In this document: positions 2,209 through 13,227 of the stretch, in pieces
Layout of the letters: each line of letters begins with the position of its first letter
Position numbering within the stretch: the first letter of the stretch is position 1
Assembly (NCBI GenBank): GCA_019057635.1
Contig: DXJL01000025.1
Coordinates: forward strand, 1-37,801
DNA length: 37,801 bases
Origin: Candidatus Heimdallarchaeota archaeon
Lineage (GTDB): Archaea; Asgardarchaeota; Heimdallarchaeia; Hodarchaeales; Hodarchaeaceae
Reading direction: 5' to 3'
Program-made: the position numbers and the translations under genes
Notes under the pieces: model-generated
Seen by the model: the letters and a program-made list of their open reading frames with translations, nothing else
Told to the model about the DNA's origin: nothing
Databases searched by the model: none

Positions 2209-3183
2209 CTAGGGTTGACTAGAGTTGATTTTAATTCTTTGCTGACACATTGGACACTGATTGAATACTTTTAACCATTCTAACAAATGTGTTCGATGAA
2301 AGACATTTCTACATTCGGGACATATCACTTTTTGTTCACGTGAACCAACAGACTGCCGACATATTACACAATAATCTTGGGTTTCAGTAATGCTCCCCCA
2401 CGAATATGTATCTGAATCATGATGAACTTGAACATCCCCCACGATAATTATATTTTCCCCTGTATCATCTCGTTTCAGTGTTCCATGTAATTCCCCATTG
2501 TCAAGAGCATGTTTTATAACCCGTTGTACAAGGGATGAGTCAACCATTAATTCAGGAAGGTCTTTTTGAATACAATAGAATAAGTATCCCAGTTCAACTT
2601 CATTTTGAGGACGATTTATTCGCTGATTAATGCTGGAGAACAAAAAGTTTCTTGTTTTGGCTAATAATATAAGATTTTGGTGTTTTTTATCAATTTCAAG
2701 CAGGACATCCTCCGCAGAGTCGATTACAACTTGTAGGAGTTGTTGTACCTCAGAGGATTGAAAGGGATGTGCAGATAAATACGTTTCACGTTTAGATTGC
2801 TCTAGGAAATCAGAAATCGTTTCATTATATCCCTGTACCTGACGTAACACTTTATCAACGTTCACAAGTAACTGAAGGGGTTCAATCATATCAACTGAAA
2901 CAAAAATTTGTTGAATATCTAACCTTCTGTCGTTGAGTTCCCCAAGATAACGTGACACTTCTGTGAAAAAAGGTTGGCGAAGAGATTGGTTTATTATATG
3001 GCCAAATATAACACTAAGAATTATTATTATTACTATTATCAATTGGTTATTGAATGTACTCATACCCGTATTAAAGAACATGAAAAGAAAAATAAGCCCT
3101 GAAATTGTGGCCAAGAAAAGAATGATATTGCCTGTTGTCTTTTCTCGTGATAAACGGGAAAGTTTACTCACACTAGTCGTCAT
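2209..3183 (-). CDS. Membrane-anchored RING-finger protein (putative E3 ligase): 2 TM helices, helical region, PCI/wHTH-like segment, C-terminal RING
   Basis: Two N-terminal hydrophobic segments; C-terminal CVIC-x12-CPEC-x4-H-x2-H-x3-W-x6-CPMC. ATG at 3183 preferred over TTG at 3225. Confidence 0.82.
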   Translation of the reverse strand: MTTSVSKLSRLSREKTTGNIILFLATISGLIFLFMFFNTGMSTFNNQLIIVIIIILSVIFGHIINQSLRQPFFTEVSRYLGELNDRRLDIQQIFVSVDMIEPLQLLVNVDKVLRQVQGYNETISDFLEQSKRETYLSAHPFQSSEVQQLLQVVIDSAEDVLLEIDKKHQNLILLAKTRNFLFSSINQRINRPQNEVELGYLFYCIQKDLPELMVDSSLVQRVIKHALDNGELHGTLKRDDTGENIIIVGDVQVHHDSDTYSWGSITETQDYCVICRQSVGSREQKVICPECRNVFHRTHLLEWLKVFNQCPMCQQRIKINSSQP

Positions 3184-3296
3184 GTAGCCACCGAATAGGT
3201 CTAAGGGAATGAGTCGAAGCTTCAAATAATAACGGCCATTGAATTAATAAAAAGTAGACTAGTTAATAATTCCGCAATAATTTTCATATTTTGAAA

Positions 3297-5156: not shown

Positions 5157-6032
5157 TTAAGATCCCCTCATATCCTTCAATGCTTTTAAGATTAGTGCAG
5201 TTGTTTTCTTACTCTCCTTCTCCATTCCCTTAATTGCCGAAATCAACTTAGTATCTACAGCTAAATTAATTTCATTCTTTATGACTTCAGGTAATTGAGT
5301 AACGGACTGATTTAATCTCTCTACTACTTGAGATAATTTTTGAATACTACCATCTTGTACCACAAGTCGCTCGGTGACTGATGTTTTAAGCTCATTTACT
5401 GAGTTTTCGAGATTTATGTTAATATGATCACGTAAGGATGCTAATTCAACTTGGATTATCGCGCTCACCCTATCTCGAAGATCGGCCACTGTTGCTAGTT
5501 GATCAGTCTGATTTTCGATCAAAGAATTTAGATTACTTTCCATCGTTTTTAAGTCATCAGAGATAGATACGAAGCTATTAATACTCACTTCATACTGATT
5601 ACTTGTTTTTTCAGTGGAATTATGAACCATAGTGGTTAAATTTTCTGATAATACCTTCATCCGTCCCACAACATCATCGACGTAACCAGCTTTTATAGTA
5701 TTAAGATCTTCTTCAATTTTCCTCTCTGTAGATTTGAAAGTAGTCTCTAGTTCATTTAATGTTGACTCCAGTGTGGTAAGGACAGGTGGTAGTTGAGCGA
5801 TAGAGGCGAGAAGTTCTGGATTAAGTCCCTCATAAGACTCCTGCACATGTCGAATGATGGTTCGAGCACTTTCTTGGAATTTTGAATCAATCGCTAGGGC
5901 AACATCAGAAAAATTACGAATGGAGGTTTCAAGTTCTTGTCGGATTTGAGAAACATCCTGACTCTGCTGAAGCATTTGAAAGATCTGCATACTTACGTCA
6001 AATATTTGTTTCAGGCTTTCTTCGATTCCCAA
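5157..6032 (-). CDS. All-helical coiled-coil protein of unknown function
   Basis: 291 aa with heptad periodicity throughout, no Trp or Cys; TTG start. Confidence 0.75.
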   Translation of the reverse strand: MGIEESLKQIFDVSMQIFQMLQQSQDVSQIRQELETSIRNFSDVALAIDSKFQESARTIIRHVQESYEGLNPELLASIAQLPPVLTTLESTLNELETTFKSTERKIEEDLNTIKAGYVDDVVGRMKVLSENLTTMVHNSTEKTSNQYEVSINSFVSISDDLKTMESNLNSLIENQTDQLATVADLRDRVSAIIQVELASLRDHININLENSVNELKTSVTERLVVQDGSIQKLSQVVERLNQSVTQLPEVIKNEINLAVDTKLISAIKGMEKESKKTTALILKALKDMRGS

Positions 6033-6188
6033 GTTCTCACTTCACTCTTCTATCCCAATATTGATTGGTAACAGGTGGTGATAATTTTACTAAAGGTGTA
6101 TCTACAATAAGTTTTCTATTTATTATTGGACTACGAAGTAATTTAAATCCATACAAACACGAGATATAAGTATATAACGTATTAGATT

Positions 6189-7196
6189 TCATTTAAGTCG
6201 TCTTAGTAATACAATATATCTATCATTCTGCAAAATAGCATTATTTAATCTGTGAATTAGGACAATTGTCTCGGAATACACAAATTGTCTGAAATCATTT
6301 CCTCTAGCGAGCTGAAATTCTTTTTGGATGTCTTTCACAACAGAAAAGGATATATTTGGAATCCTAGATTCTAAATCACCTGGTCCCAGATTATATTGCT
6401 GGAGGACTGAAGTACTGATGCGTATTGTGTCCTGTAATGTACGATTTCCATTGAGATAGTCTGATGTATTGGATATATATTTTTTTATGATGTTTTGAAT
6501 AATTAATTCTTCTGAAGCATCCAATTCTATCTTACTCTGTAATGGGAACATCTTTTTTAAGTTCTGCAATAATCTGGCTGCAGGCGCTTCTCGTAGAAGC
6601 TTAAAAATCAAATCTTTAATTTTTATACATGGAAACTGTATGATTTCATGAGAATTAGGGTGTGAAATTTCTTGTGTTAGAGCATATCTTTGAATTTCTT
6701 TACACCCATGGAGATAAAAAGTGGGGAAGGCTAGATTTGATAAATTCGCATAAGAATTCATTAGTGCGTCAATGGACTCAATTATACCCCATTTGTCAAT
6801 TAGACTTTCATACCTATTGAAATTTTTAATTATTTCTTTATTCTTTCCTACTAGGGTAGAAGTATCATCAAATTGTTCAGTTTGATCGATAGTATCAGAT
6901 ACTCCAATAATTTCAGTAAGTTTGAGATCTAACTTTTCTACAAGATCCATAAAAACGGGTTTTGCTTCTTTTAACGTTAACAAATTAGGCAAAGCTGAAT
7001 GAACTGTTCTTAATTCCTTGTACAATCCATCAGGGATATTTTCTCGGTTACTGATATACGAACTGAGTGTAATAATCAAATTCAAACTGGTTAGATTTAA
7101 ATTGATTAGGAAATCTAATTTGTTCTCTAGCACTTCAAGAGGTCTCTGATTTGAAGAATGACCTTCTGGGGGATGTTGATCTTTATTAAAATTCAT
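6189..7196 (-). CDS. Hypothetical helical protein directly downstream of the tubulin-like gene
   Basis: 335-aa ORF with GAGGT SD, starting 43 nt after the tubulin-like stop codon; no recognised motif. Confidence 0.75.
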   Translation of the reverse strand: MNFNKDQHPPEGHSSNQRPLEVLENKLDFLINLNLTSLNLIITLSSYISNRENIPDGLYKELRTVHSALPNLLTLKEAKPVFMDLVEKLDLKLTEIIGVSDTIDQTEQFDDTSTLVGKNKEIIKNFNRYESLIDKWGIIESIDALMNSYANLSNLAFPTFYLHGCKEIQRYALTQEISHPNSHEIIQFPCIKIKDLIFKLLREAPAARLLQNLKKMFPLQSKIELDASEELIIQNIIKKYISNTSDYLNGNRTLQDTIRISTSVLQQYNLGPGDLESRIPNISFSVVKDIQKEFQLARGNDFRQFVYSETIVLIHRLNNAILQNDRYIVLLRRLK

Positions 7197-7239
7197 AGTG
7201 ATAATTTACCTCTTTACATATCTACTCAAATGATCTATA

Positions 7240-8610
7240 TCATTTTTTTGCCTGGTTTTGTTCAGGTGTAATATAGTAGCCAAACAATTTTTCGAGATCG
7301 CTTACGGCATCCTCTAATTCTTGTTTTGTTGTACCTTTTGAGCGTTTAAACCAGTGTTGTTTCAATTCTGAGTCACCACTGTGTAAACGTATCAACGCTT
7401 TTGCTTCTTCTAATATATCATATAATTCTGGTATTCGTGGTAGGCCAAACAACAACAAAAGAGAGGCTCGTGCTTTCTCATCATCATAGGCACAATAAGT
7501 TGGGGAAATACTTGCACCTTTAGCCAAAAAAGGACTAAGAGCTTTTTTCAATAATGGATCAAATTCAACTCGTGCAATTTCTTTAGGTCCACTCAATACG
7601 GAAAATACTGAGGAAGCAGCGGGGTTTGTTCCCATATTAGTTAAACTGCAATGTGCTGCGGTGTACTCAACTGCTGCGGCTAATTGGTGCCCTACTTCTC
7701 CTACTTCAGGGAAAATGGATAAATCATCAAACATCGCGGGAACAACCACACTATCCAGTTTGAGTGCGAAATCTCCGATATCTGTGGTGGGTAAGACCTC
7801 TTTACCTAGCTCAGGTACGCCTGGTGAGAGCATTTCTGCAATAGATTCAAGAGCTAGCGGATTTATAAGTTCAACAAATGCTTCTTCCATCTGAACGGGA
7901 AGAGGGGTTGTAGTTTGACCTAAAACATTCGGTCTGGTCACATTACTATCTAATGCTGTGAGATCCAGTCCCTTCTCCCGAGTTAATAAATCAACCGCTT
8001 CTCCCCTTTGCATACTTAACACGCGACTCAACATAGTATTATTTGAAAGGAGAAGGATTAGATCAGGACCCATGTTTCCTTCCTCTAATTGTAATCGAAG
8101 AAGTTTTGATAAAGCCCATACACTGTTCACAGCTTCAGATGATTGGTTTACGAATGGCAAAACTCCAAAGACATAAATGAAAATTTTTCGCTTCTCTTGC
8201 TCTGCAAACCTTTTTCGCAACAGGCGAATTAAGGCGGGAGTGCCTCCACAACCTGTTCCTCCTCCAAAACTTGTGAAAATGCAAAAACCACTGATTCCTT
8301 CATAGCCCAATGCCTGCAATTGATTTAAAATAATATCTTCCGAATTAATCACTGATTCATACCCAGCAGAGAATTTTCCACCCACCCCAATTTCTGCATC
8401 TGAATAAAGCAAAGTACGCTTTGATGAAATAGAGTACTTTTTTCGTGCTTTTAATAAATCTCCTCTATCTGTATTCATCACTAAATATTCACGTATACGT
8501 TGTGGAAGTTCTCCTTTCTTGGATTTAGCTAAGTAGCTACCTACTAAATTACTTCCGCATTCTCCGATTCCTATAGCAAAAATTTCACTTTCTGTTTCTT
8601 CCATCGTCAT
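7240..8610 (-). CDS. Divergent tubulin/FtsZ-superfamily GTPase (CetZ-like)
   Basis: T1 AIGIGECGSNL, T2 MNTD, T3 GVGG, T4 signature SFGGGTGCGG, VLPF, LLSN, H7 IN, T7 TTDIGDF, plus helical C-terminal extension. Confidence 0.93.
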   Translation of the reverse strand: MTMEETESEIFAIGIGECGSNLVGSYLAKSKKGELPQRIREYLVMNTDRGDLLKARKKYSISSKRTLLYSDAEIGVGGKFSAGYESVINSEDIILNQLQALGYEGISGFCIFTSFGGGTGCGGTPALIRLLRKRFAEQEKRKIFIYVFGVLPFVNQSSEAVNSVWALSKLLRLQLEEGNMGPDLILLLSNNTMLSRVLSMQRGEAVDLLTREKGLDLTALDSNVTRPNVLGQTTTPLPVQMEEAFVELINPLALESIAEMLSPGVPELGKEVLPTTDIGDFALKLDSVVVPAMFDDLSIFPEVGEVGHQLAAAVEYTAAHCSLTNMGTNPAASSVFSVLSGPKEIARVEFDPLLKKALSPFLAKGASISPTYCAYDDEKARASLLLLFGLPRIPELYDILEEAKALIRLHSGDSELKQHWFKRSKGTTKQELEDAVSDLEKLFGYYITPEQNQAKK

Positions 8611-8624
8611 ATCTGATCCACCTA

Positions 8625-11600
8625 TTATTTTAGCACCATGCCAGATTTAATTTCAATAAATAATTTCATCACTAATGATAAATACGCTCCAATGACTTTG
8701 TTATGGGGATAAGTCTCCATAATCTTCTTGGATATCTCTTTAAATTGTCTTTTATTCTCTTCAGTGTTATCTGTGGGTAAGTAACGAGCACGAAACATTC
8801 GAAAAGCACTATGCCATCGATTTAATTGAATAGACACCTTTTCCCACTCCTCCCGCTGGCTTTCAATTCTTGGGAAAAGATCTAATATAAATCGTAAATC
8901 ATGTGAATTCATTACGTCTGCTCGATCTTCAACTAATTTTGACAAAGGAAATATTTTCTCCGATGCTTCATCGGAATACTTTTTGAAAACCTCTTGAATG
9001 TTTGAATAATAGTCTAAAGTCCCTAATTTGGTCTGTAAATTCGAATTTAGATCTTTTTCGAATACTTTCATTATTTCAACTACAACGGCCCTTATTTGAC
9101 TTAGTCTAATAATTGCCTGAGTCAAATGATGGACATGATTAGTGGTAGCAATTCGTTGGAAATCACTTAAATATGCAAAGTCAATTCGGTCATCTGTACG
9201 TATATCAATCTGAAAAGAAGCGAATAAATACTCAATTGTGTCTTGGATCTCTGCAATATATCGCTCTCCAGTTGTACGAATTGCATTACAGGCATTATTA
9301 TCATTTTGTAACTTATCTATTTCCACAAAAACCTCAGTAATTTCTCTCAGATGGACATCTTCCTGATGTTTAACTATGACTTGTGAAAAAACTTCAATAT
9401 ATCCTCCAACAAACTCAATTATATTGATACCTACTTCCTTGAGGTCATTAACATTTTTCAGGACTTTTCGTGATTCTGAGACTCCATGGGATAATAAAAC
9501 CGCAACAATTTCTGTATCATAGAAATATATCAATTCCCTCAGATTATGAGCTAACCTCTCGTGAGAAACTTCTTCTGGTTCAAAATTGTAGATTTTTTGT
9601 TCTGCTGCAAAAACACTATCACTGAGTGGAGAGATTTCATGAATTCGAGGAAGACTGACTCTTAACCAATTATAGAGATTCTGGTGTAATTTTGTAAGAG
9701 AATCCTTTGCTAATTGCATGCTTTCGAGACTGTAACTTTCATAGCTATCAACTAAACGTACGATATCCTTGTGCGTTTTTATTTCCTCTAATTTTTTCTT
9801 CATCAGCCCAAGTGGTTCTTCGAAAAATGCAGAATATTGAGGGGGGAGTTTGGAATAATCTTGTATATGCGATGTTATTTCTCGATTCATTAATTCAGTC
9901 AAAGTAGAAATCTTTCTGTCAATGTATGTTAATAATTGCCAATATTCCGTTAATGCTTCTGAATAGTCCAAATTCTCGAAATCACTATCTGTTGTGTAAC
10001 TAACGCTACTCGTTCCAGATTTCATTAATCTGAAAAGTCTTTTATCCACAGCTTCCAGTCCATCAAGTTGTTTTTTTAATTCCACCAAAATTTCTGTTTT
10101 CATTTCTTCAATGGAGCCTAAAAACGTAACATATTCACGAACGATGGCTTCAATATTCCCTATCTCAGCATGACTGTCGATTAATTTTACTATTTCATTT
10201 CGTTTCTCTCTAAGATCAAACCGTGTTTCGATAGGAATTAACGGAAAAGAAATACCTTTGATATTTTCCCGAATACGTGTAGAGACTTTATATTTCCAAA
10301 TCGAAATCTTCTCAAACTCATCTAATAGATTCTTGATTTTATCTTGAGTGGAAATCTCTATTTCTTCTCTAATCGATTTAAGATCTTCTAATTCTAATTT
10401 AGGGACATGAGATTTTAGTTTTGGCGGGATAGTCTCCAAAGTAGTGATTTGGTTGCTGATTGGATGAATTTCGCGATCAATTGCAAGCCAGATCTCACGT
10501 CGTATCTTGGCGGATAATTGATTCAATTTGTCTATTTCTTTTACAAGATCACGAACTTCTTTTTCGTCTTCACTTACATACTCCCGCAGATGTTCTATTT
10601 CCTCTTTCAAATCATCAGGTAATACAGCCTTCAAGCTTTCACGAGTGTCATAAAGACTTATTAGATTTTGACGTAAATTTTGTTGCGCTGGTTTCGAGAA
10701 ATAAGCAACTAATCGTGCTTCCCAATCCTTAATTTCTCTGGCTTTTGTTACTAATTCTCCAGGAGAAAGTACTTCAAAATCTTTCACAGTGGGAATCGGA
10801 GGCCCGTCAGTTAAACTAATAGCCTCCTGAATATGGGGATTTTCAAGCATCCTGAAGAAATAATTTTGGCATTCAGCTGCAAGTGCAAATCTGAAGTCGT
10901 AGTAACGTTTCACTAATTCTACCCACATTTGAAGTTCGTTTGTCTTCTCAGTTTCTTTTTCAATGCTTCGAACGTCATTTATAAAATCTTCAGGGATTGG
11001 AAATTTCATAACTTGTAGCGTTTTCGCAGCATTAATCAGTTCAGCCGTGCTAACCAATTTTTTCAATGCAATAATTAACTTTGAATGCCATGAACGAATT
11101 CTTTCAATATCTTGTATAATAACAGGTATTTCAGCCGCAGATACATCAATATTTGGTACCGAAACCATGGAAGAATCGATTTCGTCGTCCCCAATTAGTT
11201 GAATAATTCTCCCAATTTGATCTTCGGTTTCTGTCTTCAATGAAATCTCATAAGTTCTTAAAGAATTGATGAATTCATTTTTCAGAACGCTTAGCCTCTT
11301 TTCTAATTCGATCAGCTTTTCTACTGAGGTACTTGAATCTGCATCACTTTGAATTTCCTCTATATGTAGTTTAAGCGTTTCTATATTGCTTGAAATCTGT
11401 ATACCGATCGAAGAAATCGTTCCAAGATGTTGATGCAGAGTTGATGCCATACGAACAATTTCGGCTTGGATTTTTCCTTCTGTTCCCTTTCTTCTCTGTT
11501 TCAAATAAGCATTTTCTGCTTCTAAGTTACTGTAAAGTTCCAATAGGTCTGAAATTGTCATTACATGAATACTTGCCTTTGAAGTCTGGCTAGAGATACG

Positions 11601-12146
11601 AATTTTCTCCTCATCGAAGTTAACAAATTTACCATATAACTCAATAATTTCGCGATTGAAAAGAAAAATGGAAATATTTTTCCCTTTCAATACTTCGGCT
11701 ACCTTATTATATATTGTAACTACTGAATTGCTAAATTTCAGGACAAGTGCAGTTTCTAAACTAGGGATTTGAATGCTCTTAATGTTCTCAGTCTCTTGGG
11801 GAACAAATTTGGCAATTTCTTTGATATTTTTTGCGAGATCAAAGTAAATTCGTCTAAATCCTGCAAGAACTGTATTCAAAAGGTTCTCTGTAGTTTTATT
11901 GTACCGGTTTTTCTTCTGAGAAAGGGATTTCCTCAATCCCCTCCTCTTAAAAAAGCCTGCAGTTGTTAAATCTTTCTCTAGTTTTTGAATCTGTGTAATT
12001 AATTTTTGGGATTCATTTAAAGAAGAAATTACCTGTACGGTGGGGTCGATTGATCGTAATTCTGTTGCCACAACACCTAATTCATGAAGATCTATTTTAG
12101 ATACAAGAGAATCTTCCGTCGTTTCCAAAGACATGATATTCAACAT
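8625..12146 (-). CDS. Large all-helical repeat protein (spectrin/EzrA-like rod, inferred)
   Basis: 1173 aa, Glu/Lys/Ile/Leu-rich, recurring helical units of about 60-80 aa separated by Pro-containing linkers. No P-loop and no TM segment seen. Stop is 14 nt before the tubulin-like start. Confidence 0.85.
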   Translation of the reverse strand: MLNIMSLETTEDSLVSKIDLHELGVVATELRSIDPTVQVISSLNESQKLITQIQKLEKDLTTAGFFKRRGLRKSLSQKKNRYNKTTENLLNTVLAGFRRIYFDLAKNIKEIAKFVPQETENIKSIQIPSLETALVLKFSNSVVTIYNKVAEVLKGKNISIFLFNREIIELYGKFVNFDEEKIRISSQTSKASIHVMTISDLLELYSNLEAENAYLKQRRKGTEGKIQAEIVRMASTLHQHLGTISSIGIQISSNIETLKLHIEEIQSDADSSTSVEKLIELEKRLSVLKNEFINSLRTYEISLKTETEDQIGRIIQLIGDDEIDSSMVSVPNIDVSAAEIPVIIQDIERIRSWHSKLIIALKKLVSTAELINAAKTLQVMKFPIPEDFINDVRSIEKETEKTNELQMWVELVKRYYDFRFALAAECQNYFFRMLENPHIQEAISLTDGPPIPTVKDFEVLSPGELVTKAREIKDWEARLVAYFSKPAQQNLRQNLISLYDTRESLKAVLPDDLKEEIEHLREYVSEDEKEVRDLVKEIDKLNQLSAKIRREIWLAIDREIHPISNQITTLETIPPKLKSHVPKLELEDLKSIREEIEISTQDKIKNLLDEFEKISIWKYKVSTRIRENIKGISFPLIPIETRFDLREKRNEIVKLIDSHAEIGNIEAIVREYVTFLGSIEEMKTEILVELKKQLDGLEAVDKRLFRLMKSGTSSVSYTTDSDFENLDYSEALTEYWQLLTYIDRKISTLTELMNREITSHIQDYSKLPPQYSAFFEEPLGLMKKKLEEIKTHKDIVRLVDSYESYSLESMQLAKDSLTKLHQNLYNWLRVSLPRIHEISPLSDSVFAAEQKIYNFEPEEVSHERLAHNLRELIYFYDTEIVAVLLSHGVSESRKVLKNVNDLKEVGINIIEFVGGYIEVFSQVIVKHQEDVHLREITEVFVEIDKLQNDNNACNAIRTTGERYIAEIQDTIEYLFASFQIDIRTDDRIDFAYLSDFQRIATTNHVHHLTQAIIRLSQIRAVVVEIMKVFEKDLNSNLQTKLGTLDYYSNIQEVFKKYSDEASEKIFPLSKLVEDRADVMNSHDLRFILDLFPRIESQREEWEKVSIQLNRWHSAFRMFRARYLPTDNTEENKRQFKEISKKIMETYPHNKVIGAYLSLVMKLFIEIKSGMVLK

Positions 12147-12402
12147 TCCAGAAATTTAGAACCTAGTCTTCTTTGATAATTTCTATACTAGGATGTTCTT
12201 AAATAATGAAATAATATTGTCAAAATATAACTTTCCATTCAAAAAGAACAGAATGCCTAATTAGAATGGACTGAATGAAAACATGAATAAACTGATAATA
12301 CTGTTTTTATTATTTCCATTATGATTTCTGATATAACACCAAATTTTTTTTAGAACTGGCCAATTCGAGGAAAAGACGGAAAAAGAAAGCAGGTGAAGCA
12401 GA

Positions 12403-13227
12403 CTGAACATAAGCACGGCCAATGCACTTTTAGTTTCAATAGGGAATGAACTACTTTCTGGACAGACAGTTAATACAAATGCAAATTATCTTGCGAAAGA
12501 AATGACCCAAATGGGGTTTTCTGTCTTAAAAATTATTACAATTCCTGATTCAAAGGAAATCGTCTCCTCAGAAATTAAAAAATCATTATCTGAGGGTATC
12601 TACAGAGTTATATTAATTACAGGTGGTTTAGGTCCAACTTGGGATGACTCAACCGCGAGTTTCTTGGCTGAGACTTTAAATGTTCCTTCTATATTAAACT
12701 CTGAGGCATTAGCCCTTGTTACTCAGCGTTATAAAGAACTATATGAACAAGGATTAGTTGAGTCGGCAAAGATAACATCAGCTAGAAAAAAAATGGCTTA
12801 CCTACCTGAAGGAACTAATACCATCTATAATCCTGTTGGAGCAGCTCCAGGAATCATTTATAAAGATTCTATCAACAATACAATGCTTTACTGTTTACCT
12901 GGAGTTCCTAAAGAAATGAAGGCTATGTTCTCAATCCTTATCCCTGAATTAAAAATGATTAGTGCACTTGAAGAATCCTTTTACTTTGAAACCGAATTCT
13001 TTACCTCTTTCACAGATGAATCCATACTAGCTCCCTTTTTATTAAAAATAAGAGAAAAATATGATGTATGGATAAAATCTTTACCAAAATCTTATCAGGA
13101 AGAAGAAAATATTCATCTTATTATTTCAAGTAAAGGAAAAACTCAAAAAGAAGCTAAATCATTAGTATTTAAAGCGCGTGATTATCTTTCTGAGTTAATC
13201 TCAGGAGGAGAAATAGAGGAGATCTGA
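12403..13227 (+). CDS. cinA: CinA-like molybdopterin-binding domain protein (competence/damage-inducible)
   Basis: In-frame extension upstream of the track's ATG (12502) reads ALLVSIGNELLSGQTVNTNANYLAKE. Also ITGGLGPTWDD, GAAPG and LPGVPKEM. Start is probably CTG at 12403. Confidence 0.85.
   Translation: MNISTANALLVSIGNELLSGQTVNTNANYLAKEMTQMGFSVLKIITIPDSKEIVSSEIKKSLSEGIYRVILITGGLGPTWDDSTASFLAETLNVPSILNSEALALVTQRYKELYEQGLVESAKITSARKKMAYLPEGTNTIYNPVGAAPGIIYKDSINNTMLYCLPGVPKEMKAMFSILIPELKMISALEESFYFETEFFTSFTDESILAPFLLKIREKYDVWIKSLPKSYQEEENIHLIISSKGKTQKEAKSLVFKARDYLSELISGGEIEEI

Follow-up and report, generated by a model that had tools for sequence, protein, structure and literature searches.

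No prokaryotes are closer to eukaryotes than the Asgard archaea, and the organisation of the cytoplasm in such cells is a live question. The stretch of DNA analysed here (the window; 37,801 nucleotides (nt), contig DXJL01000025.1 of the Candidatus Heimdallarchaeota archaeon assembly GCA_019057635.1) raises it at a minus-strand locus built around a tubulin/FtsZ-superfamily GTPase, here called gene B. An earlier note on the locus had proposed a four-gene cytoskeletal operon in an Asgard host, made of this GTPase, a giant helical rod (gene A) and two helical partners (genes C and D). What was found is a three-gene module: A, B and C are collinear and tightly spaced, B and C are co-inherited, and B is a distinct and strongly conserved clade of the tubulin superfamily. 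We give a probability of about 60% to the reading that A-B-C is a tubulin-type module in which B would form GTP-driven filaments and A and C would be its dedicated partners. The features of the locus on which the argument draws are the following.

8625-12146, minus strand: gene A, 1173 amino acids (aa), ATG start, first gene of the conserved module, from the open reading frame (ORF) list
8617-8623, minus strand: Shine-Dalgarno-like AGGTGGA, 6 nt 5' of the B ATG, within the A-B gap
7240-8610, minus strand: gene B, 456 aa, ATG start, tubulin/FtsZ-superfamily GTPase, from the ORF list
8026-8586, minus strand: GTPase domain at the N-terminus of B, residues 9-195, a homologue of that of CetZ
8242-8265, minus strand: nucleotide-binding signature GGGTGCGG of B, residues 116-123, invariant in 15/15 aligned family members
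7771-7788, minus strand: putative T7-like loop TTDIGD of B, residues 275-280, in invariant columns
7208-7212, minus strand: Shine-Dalgarno-like GAGGT, 11 nt 5' of the C ATG
6189-7196, minus strand: gene C, 335 aa, ATG start, third gene of the conserved module, from the ORF list
5157-6032, minus strand: gene D, 291 aa, TTG start, predicted helical, outside the conserved module

The ORF list matched the four co-oriented genes and the gaps of 14 nt (A-B), 43 nt (B-C) and 156 nt (C-D) given in the earlier note, and both Shine-Dalgarno motifs it had named were present. Gene order was compared using tblastn with the window proteins at the best 80 of 124 relatives, which a scan of species-representative genomes had yielded. 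The closest of them bear Hodarchaeales or Heimdallarchaeota labels, in agreement with the Asgard host. A was found upstream of B on the same strand at 77 of the 80 loci, the three misses having no upstream flank; in L004 only a 51-aa piece of A was seen, 10 kb off. C was found downstream of B at 70, the ten misses consisting of three loci without flank and seven copies of a second paralogous cassette. Sizes in the relatives from ORF calling were 895-1185 aa for A, ~440-466 aa for B and ~335-380 aa for C, and the A-B and B-C gaps were mostly 0-20 nt with some overlaps. From class to class A and C stay in place and on the same strand, and they are the only neighbours of B to do so. Dozens of other genomes have homologues of A, B and C in this order, which shows them to be real genes and not chance ORFs.

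The phyletic sample comprised 301 Asgard genomes from 30 families, with a threshold of E <= 1e-60 for B. B was present in 114/301 genomes (about a third), in families f1 (18/20), f2 (2/2), f10 (1/1), f11 (66/76), f13 (1/1), f17 (15/19), f19 (4/4), f20 (5/5) and f28 (1/1), and was not found in the other 21 families of the sample (e.g., f3, 0/29; f14, 0/68). C was present in 113/301 genomes, always adjoining B, and its families are exactly the nine that have B. Two B matches were obtained in 8 of the 19 B-positive genomes of the window's genus and one in the window's genome. D was present in 19/301 genomes, all of the window's genus (g1), and was not found in two genomes of the same order outside the genus, both of which have B and one of which has C. 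Among the 80 loci D occurred at 15, all within the 16 close Hodarchaeales-type loci, where unrelated neighbours (RING, nucleotidyl-transferase-like, MoCF and CDC48-like genes) are kept too. The conserved unit is therefore A-B-C and not four genes, because D is confined to the window's genus. The synteny comparison across Asgard genomes that the earlier note had called for thus upheld the giant helical protein and the 335-aa protein as conserved neighbours of the GTPase and did not uphold the four-gene unit; the 291-aa gene, which had been named as the least certain member, may be a genus-level addition (a local accessory) or only a neighbour.

The GTPase assignment of B came from domain, structure-database and motif searches. 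Pfam Tubulin (PF00091) was matched at 62.7 bits (cut-off 33, E 7.5e-17) over residues 9-170 and was the sole above-threshold Pfam match. Searched as a single protein against PDB sequences, B gave as top matches 3zid, which we take to be a Methanosaeta CetZ, and then 4b46 (E 3.3e-7 and 1.2e-5). The 15-member B-family profile gave 4b46, 3zid and 4b45 (E 1.8e-11, 2.4e-8 and 1.1e-6), followed by OdinTubulin-type chains, BtubB and eukaryotic tubulins, among the best 60 of 70 matches at E <= 0.001; 4B46 and 4B45 are CetZ1 and CetZ2 of H. volcanii (PMC9856176). The motifs GIGECGSN, GGGTGCGG and T-T-D-x-x-D are invariant in the 15-member alignment, and the GTP-binding loops seen in the earlier note are borne out by the Tubulin match and by GGGTGCGG. 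The canonical tubulin/FtsZ nucleotide-binding signature is GGGTG[ST]G, and GGGTGCGG has Cys at the Ser/Thr position. In the T7-like loop of B, T275, T276, D277 and D280 are invariant. The hydrolysis motif of the T7 synergy loop, which activates hydrolysis in the neighbouring subunit, is given as NxDxx[D/E] (PMC12583498), and TTDIGD fits it with T replacing N. The family also has an indel-rich insertion of ~40 residues at ~196-240, which is absent from CetZ, and a conserved C-terminal extension (residues ~403-446; about 55 residues). Between Hod- and Thor-type genomes the identity of B is 52-57%, compared with 19-34% for A and 24-32% for C, and such a strong constraint on the whole surface of B would be expected of a polymer subunit.

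A GTP-driven B filament is suggested because the nucleotide-binding loops are intact, two acidic residues of the T7-like loop are invariant, B is much more conserved than A and C, and co-inheritance is strict. As FtsZ, CetZ and tubulin do, B would bind GTP and assemble head-to-tail into protofilaments, each subunit lending its T7-like loop to the catalytic site of the one after it. A could be an elongated scaffold or filament-binding rod and C a smaller regulator or adaptor, each dedicated to B, and the three together would make a cytoplasmic filament system apart from FtsZ-based division.

The partner proteins were searched by sequence and by predicted structure. No Pfam or NCBIfam family was matched above cut-off by A, C or D, and none of A, B, C and D has a membrane-grade hydrophobic segment. 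The model of A consists of helices only, in several bundles, with a mean predicted local distance difference test (pLDDT) score of 83.3 and a predicted template modelling score of 0.39. Profile searches of PDB sequences gave a best E of 0.022 for A and likewise nothing below E 0.02 for C. In the fold search with the A model the best Foldseek row had E 0.016 with a template modelling score below 0.12, and the VIA rows (Z up to 9.9) were single helical bundles in the noise range for helical proteins. In the ESM Atlas A matched only one cluster, of Thor-type hypothetical proteins (0.81), and C had no usable match. Every lineage has the N-terminal ~360 and C-terminal ~490 residues of A; Thor-type homologues lack residues ~380-680, and conservation peaks at residues 1041-1160. 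The C model (mean pLDDT 78.6) is mostly helical with three short strands and is made of an N-terminal three-helix bundle and a C-terminal domain (~120-335) in which 10-residue blocks are mostly above pLDDT 90; this domain carries an EAP.ARL motif that is invariant in a 21-homologue alignment. Foldseek with the C model gave nothing at E <= 0.001, the C-terminal domain being searched only within the whole model, and all VIA rows of this model (Z up to 8.4) fall on the generic bundle at its N-terminus. D had only sub-threshold Pfam matches and weak coiled-coil matches in the PHROGs/PADLOC searches (E 0.0026). The earlier description of the three proteins as all-helical and free of enzymatic motifs stood as regards the lack of family matches and the fold of A (D being helical by prediction) and needs qualifying for C, which is mostly helical but has the three short strands. 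Kinship among A, C and D was rejected (hhalign probability <= 1.8%), as was relatedness of D to A, B, C or a 311-aa protein of the second cassette (hhalign probability <= 1.8%). A prediction of the B-C complex scored 0.00, which counts neither for nor against binding.

Several observations weigh against a B filament with dedicated partners. Neither A nor C has a recognisable functional motif, the names scaffold and adaptor are guesses from shape, and it is from its motifs alone that B may be thought to polymerise. TTDIGD aligns with TD.GDF of the CetZ chain 3zid, but this stretch falls short of significance when taken singly, and a relaxed profile alignment puts the T7-like region of B elsewhere. 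At normal stringency hhalign stops at ~195, leaving the last ~260 residues of B unaligned with CetZ_C. No fused form of B (A-B or B-C) scored among longer proteins, which is weak evidence. The two closest relatives (L003 and L004) have 4-10 kb of other genes between A and B, which indicates that tight A-B coupling is dispensable. Finally, the second Hodarchaeales-type cassette holds A' and B' and no C. It is a tentative and rather doubtful further step to see in the locus a third self-contained Asgard cytoskeleton of the tubulin superfamily, apart from FtsZ and from the true tubulins, in which A would bind along or bundle B filaments and C would cap, nucleate or anchor them through folds not seen before.

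The second cassette was found in the Hodarchaeales-type loci L050, L067, L072, L074, L075, L077 and L081 and consists, in this order, of a 311-aa gene, A' (~1140 aa) and B' (~445 aa). The 311-aa gene was tried as a displaced C or D and rejected (hhalign probability ~0.1% or lower). In L067, L072, L075 and L077 an ORF of 727-740 aa lies on the opposite strand just downstream of B'; the one scanned, the 739-aa ORF of L075, has a Gtr1/RagA-type GTPase domain.

An unlikely alternative is that B forms no filament and serves as the GTP-regulated subunit of a discrete complex with A and C, as a switch or an assembly factor whose GTPase would be activated there. The presence of A and C always alongside B would suit such a complex, whereas the second cassette, which keeps A' and B' without C, would not. 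The C-terminal half of B is unique, with no CetZ_C, FtsZ_C or Tubulin_C match, and the indel-rich insertion at ~196-240 adds to its divergence; divergent tubulin relatives with non-filament roles are also known, e.g., Misato, taken here only as a divergent eukaryotic relative. Yet the T7-like acidic residues and all nucleotide-binding loops are invariant across classes, which is the hallmark of activation by a neighbouring subunit, and the very high conservation of the whole protein suits a polymer with several interfaces.

The three-gene filament module is also to be set against a reading, quite improbable in our view, in which B is a divergent CetZ that shapes cells alone and A and C are chance neighbours. 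CetZ is the nearest characterised family, and one public record calls a homologue of B 'CetZ'. A profile search of all 1.84 billion cluster representatives gave only 149 proteins at E <= 0.001, among them two full-length family representatives (701 and 472 bits) and some fragments; next after the B-family representatives came one outlier at 146 bits, all others being below 80. The 472-bit cluster has mainly Baldrarchaeia and Odinarchaeota labels, with three members labelled Bathyarchaeota or Thermofilum, and nearly all named B homologues have Asgard-lineage labels. Pfam was then used to scan 57 proteins, i.e., the 55 nearest full-length outsiders and the two family representatives (P0042 and P0121). 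CetZ_C was found in 30/57 and FtsZ_C or Tubulin_C in 0/57, and P0042 and P0121 had the Tubulin domain only (CetZ_C absent at 1e-4). In the Pfam scan of B there was no match to CetZ_C (PF21011) at E <= 1 and none to FtsZ_C (PF12327), and Tubulin_C (PF03953) was matched neither in B nor anywhere in its own genome.

Alignment of the B family with a profile of 16 CetZ proteins using hhalign gave a probability of 99.7%, E 1.6e-25 and 29% identity over 169 columns (residues 9-195), and under relaxed settings the alignment continued colinearly through the C-terminal half of CetZ at low confidence. Trees were quick maximum-likelihood trees with Shimodaira-Hasegawa-like approximate likelihood ratio test (SH-aLRT) support and without bootstraps, and leave the deep order unresolved. 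In the 79-row tree the 17 B-family rows form one clade (SH-aLRT 100) outside the 28-row CetZ_C clade (95). Weak support (85-92) places this clade with proteins that lack CetZ_C, six Asgard true tubulins being among them. In the 71-row tree, from which eight flagged long-branch rows had been removed, the B family is monophyletic (97) and the CetZ_C clade excludes it with support 86. B is thus, on this phylogeny, its own clade outside bona fide CetZ and within the tubulin superfamily. CetZ has the closest GTPase domain to that of B (profile E 1.8e-11 to 4b46; hhalign 99.7%) and a T7-type stretch similar to the putative one of B, and differs in carrying CetZ_C and in lacking the ~40-residue insertion and the ~55-residue conserved C-terminal extension. 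B has dedicated conserved neighbours, and the genomic contexts of CetZ and of CetZ-like groups are described as unrelated in PMC9871819. The phyletic pattern of C, which is that of B, and the hold of A and C on their position and strand while other neighbours change also speak against chance neighbours.

The sister group of the B family in both trees consists of the metagenomic proteins P0125 and P0137 (SH-aLRT 85 and 99), which have 457 and 491 aa and score 146 and 66 bits against the B-family profile. Whether A- and C-like partners predate the B family could be read from the genes around P0125 and P0137.

Canonical FtsZ was excluded as an identity for B by its 30.1 bits on the FtsZ equivalog TIGR00065 (cut-off 295.2) and by the lack of FtsZ_C. 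It is very improbable that the module acts in cell division in place of a lost FtsZ paralogue. The window's genome does have only one canonical FtsZ besides B (a single FtsZ_C match, on another contig), but FtsZ_C copy number fails to follow the module: there is one copy in 21/21 genomes of the module-positive genus of the window, two in 26/26 of the module-positive Thor family f11 and one in 26/26 of the module-negative family f3 of the same class. Because copy number does not track the module, a role as a replacement division protein is unsupported. The absence of adjacent secE, spt5 and sepF genes, pointed out in the earlier note, was confirmed among the neighbours scanned with Pfam.

Least probable of the readings considered is that the module belongs to an integrated mobile element and serves it in defence or, in the manner of TubZ or PhuZ, in DNA segregation: TubZ and PhuZ are tubulin-like GTPases in small operons that segregate plasmid or phage DNA, and the A-B junction in two relatives takes variable inserts including an IetA-like AAA ATPase, but A, B and C had no PHROGs or PADLOC match, no DNA-binding Pfam domain, such as a TubR-type adaptor would have, turned up in A, C or D, GC content stays at 0.34-0.39 throughout the window, the chromosomal context is fixed within the genus, the module is near-universal in positive families (e.g., 66/76 and 18/20), and members of the family branch according to their lineage labels.

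The A-B junction looks like a variable insertion site. The insert of L003 (6166-9774) holds a 1202-aa ORF without known family. The insert of L004 (1-10000, ~9.8 kb) holds a 773-aa ORF homologous to the 1202-aa ORF of L003 (61% identity), a 563-aa ORF and a 425-aa AAA ATPase with PADLOC IetA matches (E 2.6e-34). The equivalent site in the window is the A-B gap at 8611-8624.

The GTPase is partly in print. A CetZ-like group of Asgardarchaeota named 'Asg.Tub' was described by Santana-Molina, del Saz-Navarro and Devos in 2023 (PMC9871819), who give it an unstable position between CetZ and tubulins, a C-terminus that matches no other tubulin/FtsZ family, and neighbours that are 'unknown genes', mostly with coiled-coil regions. 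Like B, Asg.Tub is thus Asgard-restricted, placed between CetZ and tubulins and without a C-terminal match to other families, and its coiled-coil neighbours resemble A and C in being helical and without family match. Judged by these features, the clade of B is very probably Asg.Tub, and it probably also served as outgroup, under the name 'CetZ-related Asgard archaeal clade', in bioRxiv 10.64898/2026.02.15.705738. Both sources, in their available text, treat the GTPase only, as a tree branch or outgroup, and do not define the A-B-C module, its distribution, its partner families or its function. No paper on the partner genes A and C or on the function of the module was found in the literature searched, where 'Asg.Tub' occurred in one paper only. 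The label 'undescribed' given in the earlier note therefore holds in part, very probably not for the GTPase clade but, within the literature searched, for the module, its distribution and its partners; the phylogeny that the note had called for likewise placed the GTPase outside the CetZ_C clade and very probably within a published group whose partners appear there only as 'unknown genes'.

Among known systems the nearest analogy for how the module might work is BtubA/BtubB with BtubC of Prosthecobacter, an operon of a tubulin-family polymer and a helical, non-enzymatic, filament-stabilising partner (PMC9871819). BtubA/B are true tubulins with Tubulin_C that form a heterodimer, whereas the locus here has a single GTPase without Tubulin_C, and BtubC is a TPR-type partner, whereas A and C are unrelated to TPR proteins. 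The Asgard true tubulins (OdinTubulin and AtubA/B) share superfamily and phylum with B and group weakly with it in the part of the trees without CetZ_C (SH-aLRT 87-92), but carry Tubulin_C, which B lacks. FtsZ polymers have helical regulators such as EzrA, which is built of repeated three-helix bundles. The bundles of A and of the N-terminus of C resemble those of EzrA only generically (chain 4uy3, Z 7.1, in the helical-bundle noise range); B is not FtsZ, and neither A nor C showed homology to EzrA.

True tubulins, recognised by Tubulin_C, were present in 7/301 genomes of families f4, f8 and f25, compared with 114/301 for B, which is far more widespread. None of these three families has B and none of the nine B-positive families has Tubulin_C, a mutual exclusion that may be due to chance given only three tubulin-positive families. 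Bench work on Asgard archaea has dealt with their actin and true tubulins and, within the literature searched, not with the B GTPase; A-B-C offers a defined three-protein target with two partner families without known relatives. If the further reading as a third Asgard cytoskeleton is true, some of the closest prokaryotic relatives of eukaryotes (Hodarchaeales) would structure the cell interior by means of a tubulin relative whose accessory proteins are without parallel in any organism studied, and lineages with true tubulins may have replaced the B-type system. Hodarchaeales isolates with transcriptome and proteome data are reported in bioRxiv 10.1101/2025.02.26.640444, and expression and localisation would be directly testable if those isolates carry the module.

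The remaining features of the window lie around the module.

12147-12501, no strand: AT-rich intergenic region of 355 nt between gene A and the divergent MoCF-domain gene
6033-6188, minus strand: C-D spacer of 156 nt, AT-rich and weakly conserved, with Shine-Dalgarno-like GTGAAG at 6040-6045
2209-3225, minus strand: RING-H2 protein of 338 aa, with a C-terminal Pfam zf-RING_2 match (E 1.4e-6) and an N-terminal hydrophobic stretch

The region at 12147-12501 is likely the promoter region of the module, as it contains TATA-like strings, e.g., TTATATTT ~85 nt 5' of the A ATG; the gene divergent from A has a Pfam MoCF_biosynth match. A sigma-70 promoter and terminator scan gave fewer promoter-like sites than shuffles, with a bacterial model that is not applicable to archaea. 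The C-D spacer is 92-302 nt long in relatives, and its alignment among them showed no conserved promoter-like box. The TTG start of D aligned with ATG in four of the five relatives aligned, and 13 nt separate the 3' end of D from a convergent gene. Domains of housekeeping type occur in the flanking genes, e.g., a CDC48-like AAA ATPase and a nucleotidyl-transferase-like gene, and the 338-aa RING-H2 protein keeps the same place across the genus. In Thor-type loci a 468-aa gene downstream of C was rejected as an equivalent of D on account of its CoA-binding and succinyl-CoA-ligase-like domains. Upstream of A these loci have a divergent gene of ~635 aa (L027:5150-7063, minus strand) with weak WD40 beta-propeller matches, together with a gene of ~209 aa.

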